A stretch of 64,000 bases of DNA from NCBI GenBank assembly GCA_965113315.1, contig OZ220363.1; one strand, given 5' to 3'. How positions within the stretch are numbered: the first letter of the stretch is position 1; each line of letters opens with the position of its first letter. The position numbers were made by a program, and so were the translations under genes. Source of the DNA: Podarcis vaucheri (Eukaryota). Positions 1 through 41,723 of this stretch are shown one piece after another. The notes beneath the pieces were generated by a model. It searched no databases and was not told where the DNA came from. It saw nothing but the letters and a program-made list of their open reading frames with translations.

Positions 1-1844
1 CCAAAGATATTATAAGGATTTATATAAAAGAGGAGAGGAAACAGAACAAGAAATAGATCAATTTTTGCAAAAACACCATCTGGAACAAATTGTAGAAGAT
101 GAAAGAGCAGCACTAGATGAGATAATAACACAGGAAGAGATAAAAAAGGCTATCAAAAAGATGAAAGCTGAGAAGGCGCCGGGACCGGACGGTCTTCCAG
201 CCAAATATTATAAAATATTAATTAACCAAATATCACCAGTGCTGGGAGAGGTTATGAACAATATATTGAGAGAAGGAAAGATACCTGATACCTGGAAGGA
301 AGCCTATGTTACCTTGATTCCTAAAAAAGAGGTGGACACTATGGAAGTAAAGAACTATAGGCCAATCTCATTATTAAATAATGATTATAAGCTATTTGCA
401 GATATAATGGCGGAAAGATTAAAGAAGGTCTTGATTAATAAAATCCATGGTGACCAAACAGGATTTCTCCCAGGGAGACAATTACGGGATAATGTAAGGA
501 ATTTGATTGACATTATTGAATATTTGGACATGAAAATAGACAGAAAAGCTGCACTGGTTTTCATAGACGCCGAAAAGGCATTTGACAATGTTTCCTGGAA
601 CTTCCTAAAGAAGGTTTTGGAGAGGATGGGAATTGGTGAAAAATTTAGAAGAGGCATAGAAGCAATATACAAAGAACAGAAAGCAAAGCTGGTGATAAAT
701 AATAATACAACAGAATATTTTAACATTTATAAAGGGACCAGACAAGGTTGCCCCTGTCCCCCTTATTATTTATTATAATTTTGGAAGTACTTAATAAGAG
801 ACTGAGGGAGGCAACAGAAGTGAAAGGAATTAGAGTAGGAAAGAAGGAATTTAAAATTAAAGCCTTCGCCGACGATATTGTTCTGACTTTGGAAGATCCA
901 CAAGATAGTGTAAAAGAAGCATTACAAAAAATTGAGGAATTTGGAGAGGTGGCAGGTTTTAAGGTAAATAAGAATAAAACTAAAATGCTGGTTAAAAATC
1001 TAACTAAGGAAGAAACGAAAGATCTAGAACAAAAAGTGGAAATCATGGTGGTGAAAAAAGTGAAATATTTGGGAGTGTGGATCACGGCAAAAAACATAAA
1101 CCTATATAAAGATAATTATGAAGTTACATGGAAAAAAATAAAGAAAGATCTGGAAATATGGGAGAGGATGAAATTTTCCTTTTTAGGAAGGATAGCAGTG
1201 GTTAAAATGAATGTTTTGCCGAGAATGTTGTTCCTATTTCAAACTCTTCCAGTTATTAAAGGTTTAAAACAATGTAAAGAATGGCAGAGAACCCTGATGA
1301 AATTCATCTGGCAGGGGAAAAGACCAAGGATTAAAATGAAAATATTAACTGATAAAAAGGAAAGAGGAGGTTTTGCTCTCCCAGATTTGAGTTTATATTA
1401 TGAAGCAGCGTGCCTACTTTGGCTAAAAGATTGGATAAAACTGGAGAACAGAGACCTGTTGGATTTAGAAGGTTTCAATAATTGGTACGGGTGGCACGCA
1501 TATCTCTGGTATGAGAAGGTGAAAGTCCACAGGGCTTTCTTAAATCATATTTTCAGGGGACCAATATATCAGGTCTGGGAAAGAAATAAGAACCTTCTTG
1601 AAAGAAAAACACCATGGTGGATCTCACCGGTAGAGGTCTTAACAAAAAAAAAAACCAACATGGAAGAGAAGACAGCCACTTACGAAGATTTGGTAAGAAA
1701 ATCAGAACAAGGGCTTAAACTTAAACCTTATGAGGAAATAAAGGATCAATTCACCGGTTGGTTACAGTATCATCAGGTGAATGATATGTTAAAGCAAGAT
1801 AAAAGAAAAATGGGCTTTGAGGACAAGAAATCAAAATTCAATAT

Positions 1845-2601
1845 TGTCAGGGGTTCAGAAGCAGAGACGCAGAGAAGGGTGGAAACAGAGAGCGAGGGGG
1901 AGGAAGCCGAAGGGAGAATGAGTGATGATGACGACCCGAGATCTCCAAGCCTAAGCAGTGAGTCAGAGGACTCCCAAAAGGGAGCCCCAGTGAGCAGAGC
2001 AAGGGGGGGATCCGGGGGGACACCCCAGGAGGAAGGGAACAGAGGAGATTCAGAGAGCAGCAGCTGGAAGTCGGGACCCACGCTCAAGACTGAGAGCAGC
2101 AGGGAGGAAGGCAGCCAGGCATCGGGTTCCGGAGGCCGTCAGCAGGAGGGAGGGCACGAGTCAGGGGTGGTCACGCCCTCCTCAGAGAGCGAGGCAACGG
2201 TCAAGAGGAAAGTAGAGAGTTGGGCGCGCGCGCCAAGTTCAAATGCAGCGGAAGCTGGAGCAGTAAGCAGCCCGGAGAGTGAGCCAGGTCCCAAAGCCCG
2301 CCGAAAGGAAGCGGAAGGATCAGGGGGGTCAGCGTCAGAGGAGAGTAGAAGGGAGGAGTCCCAGGGGGGCAGAAGGACCCAGAGACGTAGGGAGAGGCGA
2401 AGGAGGTGGAGCAAGGCTAGGGTATTAAGCTGGTGTGCAAGAGGCGGGGACTCAGATGGGTCTTCGCCGACCTAGGGCAGAAGGTGTAGAGCTGCACGCT
2501 GCAGTTCGGAAATGAAACCTGTAACTCAATAAAGACTCTTTTAAAGTGGACGCTGTGTGGCGTGGTCCTATGTGAGCTGGGACCTGGTAGCAGCTCTGAC
2601 A
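1845..2601 (+). mobile_element. Solo LTR (probably Ty3/Gypsy-type), 757 bp, inserted in L1 ORF2
   Basis: Termini TGTCAG...CTGACA; 5-bp TSD AATAT (1840-1844 / 2602-2606); TATA-like TATTAA 2423-2428; AATAAA 2528-2533; abrupt shift to G/CpG-rich composition. Confidence 0.92.
1918..2475 (+). CDS. Putative LTR-encoded 185-aa acidic/Ser-rich protein with a C-terminal Arg-rich motif (RRTQRRRERRRRW)
   Basis: Frame is open from the LTR start to TAG 2473-2475; ATG at 1918 has A at -3; low-complexity disordered composition. Coding status unproven. Confidence 0.35.
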   Translation: MSDDDDPRSPSLSSESEDSQKGAPVSRARGGSGGTPQEEGNRGDSESSSWKSGPTLKTESSREEGSQASGSGGRQQEGGHESGVVTPSSESEATVKRKVESWARAPSSNAAEAGAVSSPESEPGPKARRKEAEGSGGSASEESRREESQGGRRTQRRRERRRRWSKARVLSWCARGGDSDGSSPT

Positions 2602-5051
2602 AATATAGAAATAATAGAAGGTAAAAACAAAACATTGTCTAAATTATACAACATATTACTGGAATGGCATACAAAAGACGAGGAAGTCAAAGAGGCAATG
2701 ATTAAATGGGCAATTGACTTCGGCTATAACATCGAGTTTGAAAAGTGGTTGAAATTGTGGAATAGAGATATTAAATTTACGGCCTGTACGAGTTTGAGAG
2801 AAAATGTCTGGAAAATGCTCTATAGATGGTATCTCACGCCGGCAAAATTAGCTAAAATCTATAGATCAGAAAATAAGACATGCTGGAAATGTGGTGAAGT
2901 GGAGGGAGACCTCTACCATATGTGGTGGCAATGCAACAAGGTGAAGGTTTTTTGGGAAGCAATTTATAATGAACTTAAAAAAGTTTTTAAATATACTTTT
3001 CCCAAAAGACCTGAGGCCTTTTTGCTGGGAATTATGGGTAAGGAAATAAAAAATGAAGATAAAAAAATTTTTCTCTATGCCACCACAGCCGCAAGAATTA
3101 TGCTGGCACAAAACTGGAAAACAGAAAATATACCTAACGTAAGTGACTGGCAGGTCAAAATGATTAACTATGCCGAGCTAGATAGATTAACAGGCAGAAT
3201 ACGAGACCAAGACGACCAGAAATTTCAAAAAAATTGGAGTAAATTTTGGAAATATATTGGAACGGATATATAGGAGGAACTGGCGGTATTAGAAAAACTT
3301 TATCAGCTAATAAGTATAAACTTTAATAAACTAATTACGCAATCCGGGATTTATTTGATACTTACCAAAAGGGTGGAGGGAAGTCAAAGGCTAAGTAGAG
3401 CCTAATGCTTATATTATTTTTTTTGTATGATTGTATGCTTACTTTTTGTATAGCATGAAAATAGGATGAATAATTTATGTTAAAATGTCTATTTTTGTAT
3501 TTGTTTGTCCTTTTTTTTTCTTTTACAAATTCTGAATAAAAATTTACTTGCAAAAAAGCTGGGTGGATTGTCACAGAGGTTGGATAAGAGGAACAAAATA
3601 ATCTTGCTGTTCCAGGACATACTTTTTTATATTAAAAGCAATGCTAGCTTGCTTCTGCACACACAGGGGTGATCCGTTACCCACCCAACCCTTTCAGTAG
3701 CATCTCCCTGGACTTCCTACAAAGCTCACCCTGAAGGTTGTGAGGGGTTTTTAGGAGGCACAAGGAGTGGAAGGGAGGCAAGAAATGAAGGAATCCATGG
3801 CCCCTTTGTGTGGAGGTGGATGTGGAGGCAGACCCTTACTTCCAGCGTACTTTCCCCCATGTTTAAATAGGTTCTCAAGACTGATTGACTGCGGCTCACA
3901 AAATGGTGGCACAAAACGGTGGCAAAGCCAGGGGCAGATGGAGGCAGTTTGGCATAATCAGCTGGCAGTTTCTGACATCATTTTCTACTGATATCTAATA
4001 CATCTCTGGAAATGACTACATTCTTTGCCAAAGTGTTTTCCTTGTAGCAACGACGCCTATATTTCAGTTTTTCTTATGATGAATATAGAGGTTTCCTCTG
4101 ACAGGATTGTGACAACATCCCTATTTTAGTCAGAATTTGCCAATCCAGAAGTTCCAAGTGGAGAAGGGTTTTTGTTTATATTTTTTCCTTCCTATCCCCA
4201 CATACCTCTCAGAAATATTTTTTTACCCATATCCTATCATTTCTTCTCACATTTTCCTTTCACACTCAGCTTGTACCTTATCCCTCCTCCCTGAAAAATC
4301 CTGAAAGTTTATTTCACCCCTTGTCCCTGGTTCTTTTACGTTCACTTTTTTCTCTTATAACAGCTTTCCTCATTCCTTTCAGTAATAGTTGTAGTAATAA
4401 TTATTATTACAGCAACTACCATCAACACTCTTTATCTGAGTTTCTAATTTCCTTCAACACCTCCTCTGGGCCACTTCCCACAGAGATGGAAGACCTTCCT
4501 CCCTTCCGGAACTTCTCTCTGAGTCATCTTGTTTTCTTCATACCAGGTTTGTTTCTTGCAATCACTTTTCTCTCTCTCTCTTTTGGTAGGTTAAAAAAGA
4601 AAAGAAAAGCAAAACAGGGGAAAGAGCAAACACTGCTTTGCTGGCTATTCTCTGATGTATTGCAGTCAGCATTGCTCTGTTCAGCTTGGATCCTGCAGCA
4701 AAATTGAATGCCACAGAAAAGTTAAGGGGCCTGCTATATTTGACATGATGTAATCCCAGCTGGCAAGATGTAATGAGTAAGCTGTTAGAAGACTGCTTCT
4801 GCTGCTCAGCTCTTGGACTAGGTAAAATAATTACAGCAGAGCATGCAATCCAGCCCTTGTTTGTAATCAAATTTTGCTAAACCCCCCCCTTTCCCCCCTC
4901 AACACCTGAGGGTGTTTTATGTTGTTTTGGTTGTCATAGACAAGAGATTGCCTTAACTTGATTCAGTGACAGTTTTTGTGGAATTCAAAGATTGCTCTTT
5001 GGCTTTCTTGTGCCCACGGGATGCCAGGACATTTGAGGGAAGCCCTCTAGA

Positions 5052-10505: not shown

Positions 10506-11286
10506 TTGCGTGTCGAGAACCCGAAGACACTGCTTCGTTGAAGAACAACACACACAAGGACACAGATACTAGGTTAATGTTATTGGGCGAATTTTGGCCA
10601 CAACTTTATTGATTACAGAATGTGAGCGGTATTGGCTTAGGCATTGAGCGGACCCAACTATATCTGACTCCTGCCCGTTGCGCAGGGAGTCTGGTAAGGG
10701 TAAGCCACCAGAAGGGGGAGCCCCGTCAATGTAGACCAACTCGAGCTCCCCCTGGTGTTCCCGCCGGGGTCATGGCATGGCCCTAGCCCCTCCCCGGGCT
10801 TCAGACGAGATCCACACCCCCAGATTCCTTTAACAAAATACCCTTAAGCTTGGAAGGGCAGGTGATGGCCACACCTCACCTCCCCCCTCATAAGGTCAAA
10901 CAATGCCTAACCGCCACCCTAACAGAGTTGTGACGATTGCTACAAGGTAGGCGAAAACCAAATGGCCTGTGCCAATTTGCCAAGTGGAAAAATTCTTACC
11001 AGGCCCCTCAACTGCGACCAACCAAGGTCCATAGCAAGGCCAATGACTAAAATCTGCAAAAGGGAGGGAGGGCAGGAGATTGAGGAAGCAAGCCAAGAGG
11101 AAGCCCTCTGGCTCGCGCCTCTGCTTAAACGGTCCCGGCCACGCCCCCCCAACCAGCGGATTGGCTGGCCAGTCACTGACGTGGCCGGGATCCCACAGGC
11201 AATGCGGAACTTTGTCCCCCATCCCTGGAGGAGTGTGGTTGGCCACGCGGTCCACAGCAACTCTTCCCCACGTGGAAGTGGAGCGG
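10506..11286 (-). mobile_element. CpG-rich terminal-repeat segment of a retroelement, probably DIRS/Ngaro (tyrosine-recombinase) type, inserted into a tRNA-SINE
   Basis: Splits a Squam2-like SINE (...GGCAGGAGAC | ATCTCCCACCCC...). Minus strand has CCAAT, GC-box and TTTAAG promoter-like motifs (~11120-11180), AATAAA (~10605) and the end CACGCAA. No TG..CA ends and no 4-6 bp TSD. A homolog starts at 63661. Confidence 0.55.
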
Positions 11287-13827
11287 ATCTCCCACCCCGA
11301 CTTGGAGATGCCCAGGATTGAATCTGGGATTTTTTGCATGTTGCGCAAATGCTCTATTACTCAGCTATGGCTCTTCCCAAATCTGTTATGGAATAAGTTA
11401 TGGAATAGACTACGGTCTATGTTTATCAGACTGCGTAGCCTACAGTCCATTTCTTCAGAGGCATGAGGTATTATTCTGAATTGCAGGTTATAAATACATA
11501 GCTGGGGGTTGGTGGAAGATTGTAAACAGTGAGGTGAAAAGGAAAGGAAATACAGAGAAATACAGATGGTGATAATTACTTTATTAACAGTGACCACTCA
11601 CCCTGGCGCACAGAGTTGTTGATAACACAGACATCCTAGCAGTCTATGTAGATTAATCAGAAACTTTGCAGATTAATTGGATAATATGTGAAATTCCCTC
11701 TTTATGATGTTCATTATTGTCATTTCAGTGTAGGCAGGCATACGCATGCACACACACACACTCACACACATGTTCTACACACACATATAATCTACCTACA
11801 GCATACAGTGCAGCTGAATATAACAAAAGCACAATAAATACTATCAGGAAATGGGTTTGAGATGATTTATGTGGCTCCTTGAATTGCTGAACGACCTTGC
11901 TGATAGCAACCATCACTTTTCGACTGTTAAACAGTGAAAGCTAATTTATTAAATTTTGCTTTCTTGGAATGCGCCACACTCAGAGACCCAAAGCGGAGGG
12001 GAGAGAAAAGGAGCAGAGTATTTATTTTAAAAGGAATAGAATTGTTCATTTCGTAAGCAGAACAGATGTGCCGTGATTGAAAACGTGTAACGTTCAAAAG
12101 AGCCATTGTCACACGAAGCAGATGCTGAATATTTAAAGAAATTCTTTACAATTTCTATCCAATGATGTATTAATTTACATAATCATAATGTGGATCCATT
12201 CTTGTAAGCCCCGAGCAATGAATAAAAGTGACTTTTCCATGAGTTTATCTTGGCAGCCCAAATGCGCTTGAATAACTTTGTTTTCAAATATTTAATAACA
12301 GGGCAAAATCTAAAGGAAAAGCTTGAGAGGGATTGGTCTATTTTATTTGATGGTGTCAAGTGCACAGCATATTTTTGCAACAAGGCAGTTTCCTGGGCAA
12401 TCACTAGCTCAAATAGCATGCATAGGTTTGTAATTATGAATATATATCATATGAAAAATTGAGTTATGATAACTTGAGATGCATTGATTTCAACAGGCTT
12501 GTGCCTATGTACCTGGAAGTAGGATTAAAATCATTGCCTGGGGTCCAGACTTCATGTAGTTCTTTCCCAAGAAGGGTTTTCCCCTCTCTTTCAAAGAAGC
12601 TAGGATATTGAGTGCGGAACCAGCAGAAGGGAGGAGCTGCTTAACCCTTTCACTGCTAGTTATTTGTCTGCTCATCATTCCCTCCAGCTGCTTTTCTTCT
12701 TGCGAGGGAAAACAAAACAGAGATGCCAACCCTTTAAATAGAGGACTGGCCTCCCTAAAGTAGGGCACACAGCCATCTTAACTGCAAGATTTTTATTTTT
12801 CACAGCAAGCAATGGAATCCTCATGGCCTTGTGATTGGGTGGATTATAAGGAATATTTCTTATTTAGTTCTTAGAAGCACTGATCTGTCTATTTATATTG
12901 GAGGTGAGGAGAGCCATTGCCCTATGTCCTTGAAATCTGGCCTCAAGCCAGCCTGCTTAGTAATAATAATCCTTTGATTATCTTCCTCCTAAAAGTGTTT
13001 TGAACTTAATAGATGTATCACTGCTGTTACAAGGAGGCTGCTTTTTGCCTTTGCTGTTCCAGTTCTCCACATTCGGTTCCATTTCTAAGCGTTTAATATA
13101 AACTTCATTTGCAGACAGAGAAAACAACGATTTGTCTCAGATTTCAGAATACAGTAAACTTGTTTGCTTGACTTTGACCTTAGTTAACTTTCTCCTCTCC
13201 CCTCCTTTTTTTAAAGGAAATCATTATGTTCATACAACTGGCAGGATGGACAAACATCTCACAGCTGGAGTCATTATTTAATATAATTATGAAATACAGA
13301 TGTTTTCTTCTCGACTAAAACAATTCTTCCAAATTGTGGGAGTCTCCCTGAGCAGAGAAGAAAGCTGAGTGTCCTAGGGATATTCAGGGTTTTATTATTA
13401 TTACTTTCCTGCACTATAAGTACATTTTAAATTACATATGTATGATCCTGCTTAGAAATTATGGGGAAGAGAACAAGATTTAACATGGGGCGCCAAACCT
13501 TGAATTGGTGCAGCTCACCAAATTTATATTAACCTTCAAAGGCCTCTGTTGATTCATACCAGTAGAAAAAGCCTATGTTGATTCAATCCAGCTGCAGAGG
13601 CTCTGTGTACCCATGGGAGGTCTGGCACACCACCAAGCATCTGTACTTCACAAGGTATTTGGGGGTACTAAGGCACCAAGCTAATATCTTACTAATGTCT
13701 TCAGGATTATCTGTAGAATCACAACGACTGTATTCAATGCGAGTTCTTCTCAGAATAGACCCACTGAAATTAATTCACTTAGGTTAGCCGCATCAACTTA
13801 TTTCCATGGGTCTACTCTTGAGTAAAA

Positions 13828-21137: not shown

Positions 21138-21188
<51 letters not shown>
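21138..21188. repeat. (TA)n microsatellite
   Basis: Directly visible. Confidence 0.98.
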
Positions 21189-21191
<3 letters not shown>

Positions 21192-21237
21192 GGTTTTGGT
21201 GTCTTCGGGTGTCTTCCCGTGTAAGAGTCGGGGTGTC

Positions 21238-21281
21238 TGTGCGACGTTTCGACGAGGTCTCACTCGTCATCTTCAGGCTGG
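21238..21281 (-). ncRNA. Minimal type-I hammerhead ribozyme motif (mirror copy)
   Basis: Reverse complement of 21697-21740. Confidence 0.75.
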
Positions 21282-21696
21282 TGCTTTCGGCTTCTTGTTA
21301 CTGGAACAGAGCAGAGTCTGGTGTTTGAGTTCCTATAAATACTGTTGAGGGGTGTGGTGTATAGCCTCCAACGTTCTGGGCAGAGAGGAAGTTCCTAGAT
21401 TAGTGTGCCTTTTCTTCTTTTGTTCCTTAATTACTTGAGGGATATCTTGGGTGATTTCATGAGTGATATTCTGAATACCACTGGGTGGGTCATTAAGTGG
21501 TATTCAGAATATCACTCATGAAATCACCCAAGATATCCCTCAAGTAATTAAGGAACAAAAGAAGAAAAGGCACACTAATCTAGGAACTTCCTCTCTGCCC
21601 AGAACGTTGGAGGCTATACACCACACCCCTCAACAGTATTTATAGGAACTCAAACACCAGACTCTGCTCTGTTCCAGTAACAAGAAGCCGAAAGCA

Positions 21697-21740
21697 CCAG
21701 CCTGAAGATGACGAGTGAGACCTCGTCGAAACGTCGCACA
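21697..21740 (+). ncRNA. Minimal type-I hammerhead ribozyme motif
   Basis: CUGAAGA-U-GACGAG(ugagac)CUCGUC-GAAA-CG-UC: conserved core, 6-bp helix II, palindromic ACGU in place of helix III, GUC cleavage triplet. Confidence 0.75.
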
Positions 21741-21811
21741 GACACCCCGACTCTTACACGGGAAGACACCCGAAGACACCAAAACCTGCATTCCTGTACC
21801 CGTGAAAATCT

Positions 21812-21843
<32 letters not shown>

Positions 21844-37231: not shown

Positions 37232-39983
37232 ATAGAATCATAGAATCATAGAGTTGGAAGACACCACAATGGCCATCAAGTCCAACCCCCTGCCAAGCAG
37301 GAAACACCATCAGAGCACTCCTGACATATGGTTGTCAAGCCTCTGCTTAAAGACCTCCAAAGAAGGAGACTCAACCACACTCCTTGGCAGCAAATTCCAC
37401 TGTCGAACAGCTCTTACTGTCAGGAAGTTCTTCCTAATGTTTAGGTGGAATCTTCTTTCTTGTAGTTTGGATCCATTGCTCCGTGTCCGCTTCACTGGAG
37501 CAGCAGAAAACAACCTTTCTCCCTCCTCTATGTGACATCCTTTTATAATTTTGAACATGGCTATCATATCACCCCTTAACCTCCTCTTCTCCAGGCTAAA
37601 CATGCCCAGCTCCCTTAGCCGTTCCTCATAAGGCATCATTTCCAGGCCTTTGACCATTTTGGTTGCCCTCCTCTGGACACGTTCCAGTTTGTCAGTGTCC
37701 TTCTTGAACTGTGGTGCCCAGAACTGGACACAGTACTCCAGGTGAGGTCTGACCAGAGCAGAATACAGTGGCACTATTACTTCCCTTGATCTAGATGCTA
37801 TACTCCTATTGATGCAGCCCAGAATTGCATTGGCTTTTTTAGCTGCCGCGTCACACTGTTGGCTCATGTCAAGTTTGTGGTCAACCAAGACTCCTAGATC
37901 CTTTTCACATGTACTGCTCTCAAGCCACGTGTCACCCATCTTGTATTTGTGCCTCTCAATTTTTTTTGCCCAAATGCAATACTTTACATTTCTCCCTGTT
38001 AAAGTTCATCTTGTTTGTTTTGGCCCAGTCCTCTAATCTGTCAAGGTTGTTTTGAAGTGTGATCCTGTCCTCTGGGGTGTTAGCCACCCCTCCCAGTTTG
38101 GTGTCATCTGCAAATTTGATCAGGATGCCCTTGAGTCCATCATCCAAGTCGTTGATAAAGATGTTGAATAAGACCGGGCCCAAGACAGAACCCTGTGGCA
38201 CCCCACTAGTCACTCTTCTCCAGGATGAAGAGGAACCATTGATGAGCACCCTTTGGGTTCGGTCAGTCAGCCAGTTACAAATCCACTGAGTGGTAGCATA
38301 GTCAAGACCGCATTTTACCAGCTTCTTTACAAGAATATCATGGGCACCTTGTCAAATGCCTTGCTGAAATCAAGGTAGGCTACATCCACTGCGTTCCCTT
38401 CATCTACCAGGCTTGTAATTCTGTCAAAAAACGAGATCAGGTTAGTCTGACATGACTTATTTTTCAGAAATCCATGCTGACTATTGGTGATCACAGCATT
38501 CCTTTCTAGGTGCTCACAGACTGTTTGCTTAATGATCTGCTCCAGAATCTTCCCTGGTATTGATGTCAGACTGACTGGGCGGTAATTATTTGGGTCCTCT
38601 CTTTTCCCCTTTTTGAAAATAGGGACAACATTTGCCCTCCTCCAGTCTGCCGGGACTTCGCCTGTTCTCCAGGAATTCTCAAAGATGACTGTCAGTGGTT
38701 CTGAGATCACATCTGCCAGTTCTTTTAATACTCTTGGATGCAGTTCATCTGGCCCTAGAGACTTGAATACATCTAAACTAGCCAAGTATTCTTGTACTAT
38801 CTCCTTAGTTATTCTGGGCTGTGTTTCCTCTGCTGAATCATTTGCTCCAAATTCTTCAGGTCGTGCATTGTTTTCTTTATCGGAGAAGACTGAGGCAAAG
38901 AAGGCATTGAGGAGTTCAGTCCTTTCTGTGTCCCCTGTTTGCATTTCACCATCTTCTCCTCTGAGTGAACCCACTGTTTCTTTGTTCTTCCTTTTGCTAC
39001 GGACATACCCATAAAAGCCTTTTTTGTTGCTTTTAACCTCTCTAGCAAGCCTGAGTTCATTCTGTGCTTTAGCTTTTCTGACTTTGTGTCTACATGTGCT
39101 GGCTATTTGTTTGAATTCCTCTTTGGTGGTTTCCCCCCTTTTCCATTTTTTGTACACATCCTTTTTTTAATCTTAACTCAGTTAAAAGTTCTTTAGCTAG
39201 CCACCCTGGCTTCTTTAGGCACCTTATATGTTTCCGTCTCATTGGTATTGCCTGAAGTTGTGCTTTTACTATCTCCCTCTTAACAAACTCCCAGCCATCA
39301 TGAGCTCCCTTTTCTTTTAGTATTACTGTCCATGAGATCTCACCCATCACTTCCCTAAGTTTTATGAAGTCGGCTTTCTTAAAGTCAAGAAATTGAGTCC
39401 TAGTATGCTTGGCTGCTCCTTTTCGCTGTATAGTAAACTTCAGAAGAGCATGAACACTCGCGCCTAATGATCCTTCCACTTCTACCTCACTAACCAGGTC
39501 ATCAACATTGGTTAGGACCAGATCTAAAATGGCTGTTCCTCTTGTTGCTTCTCCCACTTTCTGGACAATGAAGTTGTCTGCAAGGCCAGTGAGGAATCTG
39601 TTTGACCTTATGCTCTTGGCTGAGTTTGACATCCAAGAAATATCCGGGTAATTGAAGTCCCCCATTACTACTATCTCCCTTCCTTTTGCATGCTTGGCCA
39701 TCTGTTCCAGGAAGGCATCATCTATGTCCTCCATTTGGCTTGGGGATCTATAGTAAACTCCCACAATAAGGTCACTGTTATTCTTCTCTCCCTTAATTTT
39801 GACCCAAATGCTCTCACTTTGGCTTTGAGGTTCTAAATCTTGGATCTCTTCACAGGTATAAACATCCCTGACATATAACGCCACTCCTCCTCCTTTCTTG
39901 TCTGGTCTGTTTCTCTGAAATAGATTGTATCCCTCCATTATTACATTCCAATCGTGGGACTTATCCCACCAGGTTTCAGTGAT
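37232..39983 (-). mobile_element. CR1 LINE, 5'-truncated within the endonuclease domain; near-intact ORF2 with three frameshifts
   Basis: APE motifs ITETWWD, VMGDFNYP, ILDLVL; RT motifs [31 protein letters not shown]; 3' tail (ATTCTATG)n. Confidence 0.97.
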
Positions 39984-41723
39984 TAAATTTTTTAAAATAT
40001 GTTTAGGACAATAGCCTATCTGACTGTAATTTGGCAGACTTTCTCCAACACTTCCCATCTCCTGGCTGGGTTCTTTATGTTTTGTTTTGTTTTTTACTTT
40101 CCCATGATGAATTGTGCCAATGTACAGACCTCTTAAATGTGGATCTCTTTATAACTCACAGCCACTGAAAAGTTTGCCCCTCTGTTAAAAAAGAAAAGCC
40201 AAGACTTCATTTGGTTACTGTGTTGCAAATTCTTATCCCATTTCAGCAAAACTTTCCAGAATATTGTCTTTTAATTCACATCTAATAGATTTGTAAAGTA
40301 CAGTTTTCTCCCTTTTTTCTAACAATTTTTCAAATTCAGCTTTACTTTGCCTTAACTCACTTCTTTGCTCTAATCTGTTCAGATAACAACATATTTTTTT
40401 AAAAAAAAACTGATAAGGGGAATTGGTTTATAATTTCATTACCACTTTTTCATAAGCTTTTACTTGTTACCAATCCTGATATAAATGCATGCATTTTTCT
40501 TACTATTTTTGAAAAGTCCCTAGATGTCTGATTGAATTTCTCATCCTTGGACAATATGAGTTCCTGGGGCAAGAGCTTGTTTGCAACTATCCCATGCTGA
40601 CAAGCAAATGTTTATGATGTAACTCAGTCCTTTATAGAGCTTTTTCCTAACAGTTTTAGACATCTGTAGGAGATTTCAGAGGCCTACTCAGACTGATATT
40701 TCTTCCATAAATCTATAATATATGTTCTCTTCTTCATTCCATTGCAGTAACCATGAAATGACTCTTGCCTCCTAATAACTTTCGATATCTGGTATTCCCA
40801 GATTCCCAGCCAGCCATTTTCAAAACTTTTGCTCTCAGAAAGCAGTTCTGCAGTTTCCAGATCCGTCAAGTAGACAGCCATCATCTGTAGTCATCATTTG
40901 GCTAGTGTAGCATCAAATCACAGAGATGGGGAAAACCAAGCTAAGCCCATCTACAGTAAAGCACAGAAATGGAACGCAGCAGGATTAAGGTTGCAATTCC
41001 ATGCACACTTACTTGGAAGTAAGTCTCACTGAACTCCGGGTGCTAAGCTCTGAACTGTGCAATGACGTCTTATAAAGAGGACTCGCTGCACTTAATTTTC
41101 ATCCCAGATTGTGTCCTGTCATTCCTTGCACATATGAATCTGGCCGGCTTCTTTATTTTATGTATACCCCACTTTTCAGTCCCCATGTGGCTCTCAAAGT
41201 GACTTACAGTTAAAATCCTTACAAAGATGCAATATATTCATGAGCCATATAGTTGTATGGAACAGGAAACAAGCTCTTTTGATCCCTGGCATCTGGTGAT
41301 AGAGTTTTGCTTGCCCCTGGTGTGGATGGGGATGGGTGAATCACTTTGGTTCCTCTCGGTTCCTCTTTTTTTTCAGTCTTAAGTTCAGTTATCCATATTT
41401 ACATATCACTTTGCAAAGAAAACCCCACTCCCTCCCCCACAAGACCTCATGAAAATCCAACAGCATTTTAGAGTGAATTTCTCCTAACATGCACATTTAC
41501 GTATGTAGTTTTTCAAAAACACACATATTTGCAGGGCAATCCCCTCTATCATAATTAACTTTTCTTTGCTATTTTTCACTAATATATGCATTCTGATGCA
41601 CACTTTACTTTGGCTGAAGAACTGCATTGCAAAATTGGGAGAAGTGTGAATTTTGAAGAACAGCTGCATTTTGGTTGTTCTCTCATTGCAGCGAATGTGG
41701 ATTAGGTAGGATTTGCAATAGTA

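Follow-up and report, generated by a model that had tools for sequence, protein, structure and literature searches.

The Open Frame of a Podarcis vaucheri LTR Is Very Probably the End of a Retrotransposon Integrase Tail

Results

A Solo LTR with a 209-Codon Open Frame Lies within a LINE

The window, by which we mean the whole 64,000-nt stretch of Podarcis vaucheri DNA that was analyzed (GCA_965113315.1, contig OZ220363.1), carries near its start an LTR that landed in ORF2 of a LINE. The features of this region are as follows (coordinates, strand, description).

1..3557, +, host LINE, with the LTR in its ORF2; identical copies elsewhere have 1,241-codon frames
1840..1844, +, target-site duplication AATAT (5 bp), 5' copy, from the sequence
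1845..2601, +, solo LTR (757 bp) of a young, apparently Tf1/sushi-type Ty3/gypsy element, family A; ends TGTCAG...CTGACA
1846..2475, +, very probably the last 209 codons and the stop of Pol (integrase tail, as coded in a 3' LTR), from continuity with Pol and dN/dS of 0.23-0.45 among subfamilies A, B, and C
1918..1920, +, in-frame ATG, codon 25 of the LTR-coded part; lies 5' of the predicted RNA start and is probably a Met within Pol
2203..2211, +, basic patch KRK, putatively NLS-like, kept in A, B, and C and in Podarcis muralis relatives
2290..2307, +, basic patch PKARRK, putatively NLS-like, kept in A, B, and C
2371..2433, +, patch rich in Arg/Lys and, after it, [LV]L[SC]W, a motif conserved at the end of the tail, from an alignment of 12 tails
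2423..2428, +, TATA-like TATTAA, -31 to -26 from the predicted start, sharing bases with the V-L-S codons, from the sequence
2454..2464, +, predicted 5' end of the element RNA, whose 11 nt would pair as a self-primer with bases +3 to +13 past the 5' LTR
2528..2533, +, polyadenylation signal AATAAA at +74, from the sequence
2602..2606, +, target-site duplication AATAT, 3' copy, from the sequence

The window LTR is 100% identical over 757 bp to 39 other LTRs (40 were scored among 1,034 candidates in a DNA search of the own genome), and most of those scored occur as pairs with a spacing of 5,809 bp. We infer that the solo LTR at 1845-2601 is a remnant of recombination between LTRs; cut off from the rest of Pol, it would not yield the tail protein. 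The host LINE, which we take to be L1/Tx1-like from its C-terminal motif, is in phase with the LTR frame, such that 733-2475 is open for 580 codons. Because ORF2 is itself broken upstream, near 735, we dismissed an L1 ORF2-LTR fusion as a chance phase.

Elsewhere in the window, a fragmented endonuclease-RT LINE (37310-40148, minus strand) is 97-98% identical to many young copies, and an inverted repeat (21138-21840) has 345-nt arms that are 93% complementary with 13 nt between them. A GC-rich stretch (10693-11466) holds open frames of 130-155 codons in four frames, and the one frame tested had no Pfam match.

A sequence-only reading of this DNA had described a frame that was stop-free from the first LTR base through U3 to a TAG and had proposed that it was an accessory gene. 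The frame is open for 209 codons to TAG 2473-2475, as described, but starts at the second LTR base (1846). Its landmarks are in place: translation from ATG 1918 gives 185 aa with an acidic start, and both PKARRK (2290-2307) and RRTQRRRERRRRWSKARVLSW (2371-2433) are found. A disordered product had also been predicted, and AlphaFold2 pLDDT values of ~34-51 over the LTR-coded part are consistent with disorder. No Pfam family matched this part.

The Pol Frame of Full Elements Runs into the 3' LTR

Ten full elements were examined; they measure 6,566-6,568 bp and have identical LTRs and 5-bp duplications. Each full element contains gag (383 codons) and, overlapping it, pol (1,561 codons); the pol frame crosses the polypurine tract and ends inside the 3' LTR at the very stop seen in the window. 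Hence, the "LTR ORF" is very probably the end of Pol, and the earlier suggestion that the frame might begin upstream, in the internal region, proved right. The 1,561-codon frame was found in 10/10 full elements first examined and, by an eye count, in 134 of 150 scored integrase-end matches, all of which are 99-100% identical; of 50 full elements, 49 have all 209 codons of the LTR part open. Family A is very young.

Pfam assigns protease, RT, RNase H, integrase zinc finger and core, and a Tf2-type SH3 domain to the Pol frame, in the order PR-RT-RH-IN. The best relative with a solved structure is Ty3 Gag-Pol (E 2.6e-134), the closest named non-lizard match is a fish "Tf2-6 polyprotein," and no env-like frame is present in the full element. 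A candidate -1 frameshift site, GGGAAAC, lies near the end of gag in six of nine elements, where the gag and pol frames overlap. Judged by these features, the element appears to belong to the Tf1/sushi type of Ty3/gypsy.

The chromodomain of family A is degenerate. Its Pfam Chromo score of 18.3 bits falls below the cut-off of 25.1, whereas those of families E (49.6 bits) and D (43.1 bits) exceed it. AlphaFold2 returned a chromodomain fold (pLDDT >90 over the first 50 residues), followed by a helix and a disordered remainder, and a search of the ESM Atlas gave weak chromodomain look-alikes only (scores 0.76-0.77). The aromatic cage residues of family A are presumably lost, as judged by eye.

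The lizard element shares several traits with Tf1/sushi chromoviruses (sushi-ichi, Tf1; GyDB V-clade): PR-RT-RH-IN order, a CCHC Gag, a chromodomain after GPY/SH3, a predicted self-priming PBS, a gag-pol overlap with GGGAAAC for -1 frameshifting, and 5-bp duplications (bioRxiv 10.1101/2022.12.06.519325; PMC6317226). Besides the decayed chromodomain of family A, it differs from them in that the integrase runs 210-360 aa past the chromodomain, with 100-218 codons inside the 3' LTR. The 26 other integrases in our tree mostly end soon past the chromodomain.

The Predicted RNA Start Lies Downstream of the In-Frame ATG

No tRNA-type primer-binding site follows the 5' LTR. The duplex between 2454-2464 and bases +3 to +13 is present in the minimum-energy fold; this fold is unexceptional overall (z = -1.6), and the evidence comes from covariation. 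In nine elements of six families, with six different primer sequences, the primer and PBS sides covary: eight of the nine pair at 10-11 of 11 positions at a fixed offset, and the ninth pairs at 11/11, one base off in its 5' LTR. We suggest that the RNA starts at 2454 and self-primes, which is the mechanism of the Tf1/sushi group (bioRxiv 10.1101/2022.12.06.519325; PMC6317226). The equivalent of TATTAA in other families is AT-rich only, or absent. Just after the 11-nt PBS, bases +12 to +18 past the 5' LTR are hypervariable (substitutions and small insertions) in copies that are otherwise near-identical (L001-L040), perhaps a footprint of self-priming.

A start at 2454 places ATG 1918 536 nt upstream, so that the ATG would be absent from the main RNA in a 5' or solo LTR; in a 3' LTR, it is probably an internal Met of Pol. 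This arrangement makes a stand-alone accessory gene unlikely, and the frame is better read as the Pol C terminus than as a gene of the Rev, nef, or sag type.

Six Families Share the LTR-Coded Tail

Sister subfamilies B and C were reached via Podarcis muralis and P. lilfordi proteins and then the own genome; the P. muralis proteins share this stop. Among cluster representatives, a search returned two distant unnamed proteins with a similar tail (P0059 and P0060), through which families D, E, and F were located in the own genome. In D-F, Pol likewise crosses the polypurine tract, takes up 330-380 nt of an LTR that is 436-483 bp long, and stops 20-25 nt past the start of the self-primer. The LTR-coded length ranges from about 100 to 218 codons across families, with a matching stop in six families and a second species. 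A profile search with 12 tails recovered six proteins from 7,987 scored candidates of 134-730 aa, none named outside Podarcis.

In a quick tree of 43 integrase cores (those of 160 sequences that covered the core, with no named reference element among them), the 17 tailed integrases form one clade (SH-aLRT 100). This clade splits into A-C versus D-F plus P0059, at ~57-59% integrase identity. Older relatives concentrate on a 41-Mb contig (G000:C41), which holds ~90 of 148 family D matches by an eye count; such a concentration would be expected for a non-recombining W-like chromosome.

The end of the tail is conserved. Each of the 12 aligned tails is rich in K/R (11-14 among its last 45 aa) and has [LV]L[SC]W; L397 and W399 are invariant in alignment A2, with the L coded by TTA, CTT, or CTC. 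In each full tail compared, 20 nt separate the end of the W codon from the self-primer. Because this spacing is fixed, the end motif may serve as both promoter and peptide and be partly held by the promoter. The Rev-like RRRRW...W string, whose conservation had been suggested as a check, fared less well: only its basic character is kept, and the W of RRRRW is lost in distant families.

HIV-1 Rev has an arginine-rich motif, and nef and MMTV sag are accessory genes that overlap U3. The lizard frame resembles these systems in having an arginine-rich stretch followed by W and in coding across U3, but it is probably no separate gene, the string is unconserved, and the element is a Ty3/gypsy without env. 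We nevertheless considered whether the LTR part is made as a separate small, Rev-like RNA-binding regulator, either translated from ATG 1918 of an RNA that begins farther upstream or is spliced, or cut from Pol by the protease. Such a protein would account for the conserved basic end, and release by protease is compatible with the sequence. Subfamily A and 19/19 C copies keep the ATG, which has a purine at -3, and in 16/16 B copies a Met lies 11 codons later (codon 36); an unnamed 185-aa predicted protein of this shape also exists (P0058), although it is an ORF call on a 1,137-nt contig. However, Met is scattered or absent in D-F and lacking altogether in L110 and P0059, the codons 5' of the ATG are also conserved in frame, the frame is continuous with Pol in all families, the predicted start lies 3' of the ATG, and the element has no env-like frame. 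Contigs from four sequencing runs gave neither a transcript start or end nor a convincing splice junction and thus favor neither view. We consider a separate regulator distinctly unlikely.

The LTR-Coded Frame Is under Purifying Selection between Subfamilies

We compared 40 loci (20 B and 20 C), of which four B and one C were dropped for want of both LTR ends. The 19 remaining C LTRs are 79% identical to the window LTR and give a dN/dS of 0.26-0.29 in frame, against 1.5-2.0 and 1.0-1.3 in the other frames; the 16 B LTRs (67-69% identical) give 0.33-0.45. A and C LTRs align without a gap over the first 628 nt, and their differences by codon position are 29/33/74 (third-position excess, p = 1e-6).

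Full-element pairs agree, by the same simple counting estimates of dN/dS. The LTR-coded tail gives 0.23 (0.15-0.35) for A-C, 0.34 for A-B, and 0.45 for B-C, and four D-F pairs give 0.42, 0.33, 0.42, and 0.33; one exception among eight pairs, L112 versus L113 (D-F), gives 0.70 (0.44-1.19). The integrase core gives 0.06-0.11, and the tail evolves 3-5x faster. Over the last 40 codons, dN/dS is 0.12-0.22 in four D-F pairs, and the interval spans 1 in the other four of eight. Copies of B-F were retrieved by protein search, which favors open frames but not synonymous over non-synonymous change at this depth. The sequence-only reading had named dN/dS below 1 as a check, and these comparisons show that the LTR-coded part is under purifying selection between subfamilies.

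They also bear on whether a T-poor strand gave rise to the frame by chance, with only the youth of the copies keeping it open. The frame region is 10% T, and family A copies are nearly identical. Dinucleotide shuffling of the whole LTR gave a frame of at least 209 codons 19 times in 3000, that of the T-poor frame region alone 58 times in 3000, and shuffling confined to 60-nt blocks 20 times in 3000. Few shuffles reach 209 codons, so composition alone seldom explains the frame, and between-subfamily selection is the stronger test. The frame-specific excess of third-position change, the A-C dN/dS of 0.23, and the survival of the frame, up to the corresponding stop, across six families and a second species already refute a chance origin, which we regard as extremely improbable.

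A Candidate Host-Binding Motif Lies between the Chromodomain and the LTR

Outside the window, between the chromodomain and the LTR, 12 of 12 aligned tails contain the pattern F-x8-9-[FL]xGF (L031 5560-5660, in the full element 5' of the 3' LTR; also L105-L117). The motif is single in A-C and mostly double in D-F, and one of two family E copies has L for the first F. All 17 tailed integrases and none of the 26 other integrases in the tree carry the FxGF pattern, whose frequency in shuffled tail segments is 0.002-0.019. A helix is predicted at tail residues 54-61 (block pLDDT 76), and F57 and F62 are nearly invariant.

This layout recalls the TND-interacting motif (TIM), in which a linker of 8-16 residues, acidic and rich in S/T, joins a helix to FxGF, with FxGF essential for binding LEDGF/HRP2; these are the factors that lentiviral integrases use, and they bias integration to active gene bodies (PMC9987994). 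LEDGF- and HRP2-like exons are present in the host genome. Lentiviral integrases contact the LEDGF/HRP2 domain by a folded surface, not by such a motif.

The LEDGF/HRP2-binding TIMs of JPO2, PogZ, KMT2A, and IWS1 resemble the lizard motifs in a predicted short helix ending in F, a D/E/S/T linker of 8-9 residues, and FxGF (P0221-P0230; PMC9987994). The human JPO2, PogZ, and KMT2A motifs have the same F-linker-FxGF build as those of D-F, and JPO2 in particular has tandem motif copies, as D-F do. The human linkers contain 3-6 D/E, as do the 8-9-residue linkers of D-F and P0059 (3-6 of 9). The lizard motifs differ from TIMs in that they lie in a retrotransposon integrase, that LEDGF/HRP2 binding is putative, and that the linker is S/T-only in A-C (0 D/E, 5-6 S/T), with acidic residues coming after the S/T-rich linker motif. 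Since the A-C linker lacks D/E, phosphorylation would be needed to fit the host pattern. From this resemblance, we tentatively propose a LEDGF-type protein as a possible, though doubtful, partner of the tail. We found no FxGF motif in a retrotransposon integrase in the open-access literature.

The conserved motifs also help to judge whether the tail has any specific function. Pol might simply have lost its stop and entered a purine-rich U3, with selection only for a soluble, disordered, and open product (for example, to keep a short 3' untranslated region) and with the promoter fixing the end motif. The three- to fivefold higher dN/dS of the tail relative to the core fits this account, as do the variable LTR-coded length (about 100 to 218 codons), the stop just inside R, ~55 nt ahead of AATAAA, and the fixed W-to-start spacing. 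Less easily explained are the persistence of the FxGF aromatics and of the end-motif L and W across 57% integrase identity, with L written by different codons, the low dN/dS of the last 40 codons in four D-F pairs, and the duplication of FxGF in D-F. A tail without specific function therefore seems unlikely to us, and we somewhat favor a role in import or docking.

Family A Copies Cluster near Contig Ends

On large contigs, 52 of 144 family A matches lie at most 1 Mb from an end, where 3.6 are expected; this set derives from the best 150 of 6,210 candidates. Among controls, an RTE-like LINE has 6/149 and the host LINE family 8/147 within the same distance. The youngest host-LINE copies are also end-enriched (7/43, where 1.2 would be expected; p = 0.015 for family A compared with this set), and retention, not targeting, therefore accounts for some of the skew. 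Forty end-located copies were compared; they have distinct flanks (40/40) and target duplications (39/40), which excludes flank duplication as the source of the clustering. Nine of them lie in telomere-like arrays, and others lie in satellites or inside copies of their own family.

Several contig ends (L122, L124, L134-L136, and L138-L140) have degenerate telomere-like hexamer arrays of several kb that hold family A insertions; these arrays sit 0.05-0.7 Mb inside contig ends or on small contigs. Satellites with family A insertions have units of 174 bp (L132 and L133) and 493 bp (L121). Judged by eye from their flanks, L146, L147, L153, L157, L159, and L168 are family A copies nested in copies of the same or a sister family.

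The placement fits insertion that is either targeted or tolerated and may resemble that of plant CRM elements (PMC3059260, PMC3605345). It does not fit plain LEDGF gene-body targeting.

Discussion

Taken together, the LTR frame is likely best explained as the Pol tail of a self-priming element, a disordered arm for nuclear entry and chromatin docking. The RNA would start at 2454 in the 5' LTR and prime its own reverse transcription, and Gag-Pol would be made by -1 frameshifting. In the released integrase, the degenerate chromodomain would be followed by the F-x8-9-FxGF motif (one or two copies), then by a long spacer that is acidic and rich in S/T, and finally by the basic end with its [LV]L[SC]W. 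The basic patches of this tail may act as nuclear localization or nucleic-acid-binding signals, and its FxGF motifs may bind a domain of the TFIIS-N-terminal type, for instance in LEDGF or HRP2. U3 would then do double duty, serving as the promoter in one LTR (5') and coding for protein in the other (3').

The closest analog is group A of the plant CRM elements, in which a targeting domain is also LTR-coded (PMC3059260, PMC3605345). CRM uses a tRNA-Met primer, whereas the lizard element is predicted to self-prime, and a CR motif replaces the CRM chromodomain, whereas the chromodomain fold is kept in the lizard element. The two tails have no sequence likeness by Pfam, the lizard LTR part being without a match. 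We suggest that the likeness is a convergent layout and that the LTR-coded tail of the lizard element may work like the LTR-coded targeting part of CRM.

A more specific scenario, which we put forward as possible but still doubtful, is that the lizard clade swapped histone reading by the chromodomain for mimicry of the LEDGF/HRP2 motif on its integrase tail (one or two FxGF TIMs), with the basic end placed inside the LTR promoter. A non-viral, currently amplifying element would then have converged on a lentiviral host factor by another route.

We did not find a vertebrate LTR-coded integrase tail described in the open-access literature; among the reports consulted, such a layout has so far been described for plant centromeric elements (PMC3059260, PMC3605345). 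Here, a vertebrate Ty3/gypsy lineage keeps 330-660 nt of its LTR as coding sequence under selection, overlapping the core promoter. Because family A is both very young and abundant, its insertion pattern can be read directly from the genome. If LEDGF/HRP2 or a different TND protein does bind the FxGF motif, the element would be a case of a retrotransposon that uses a host short linear motif as an integration tether, and it would inform how integration-site choice evolves as chromodomains decay.
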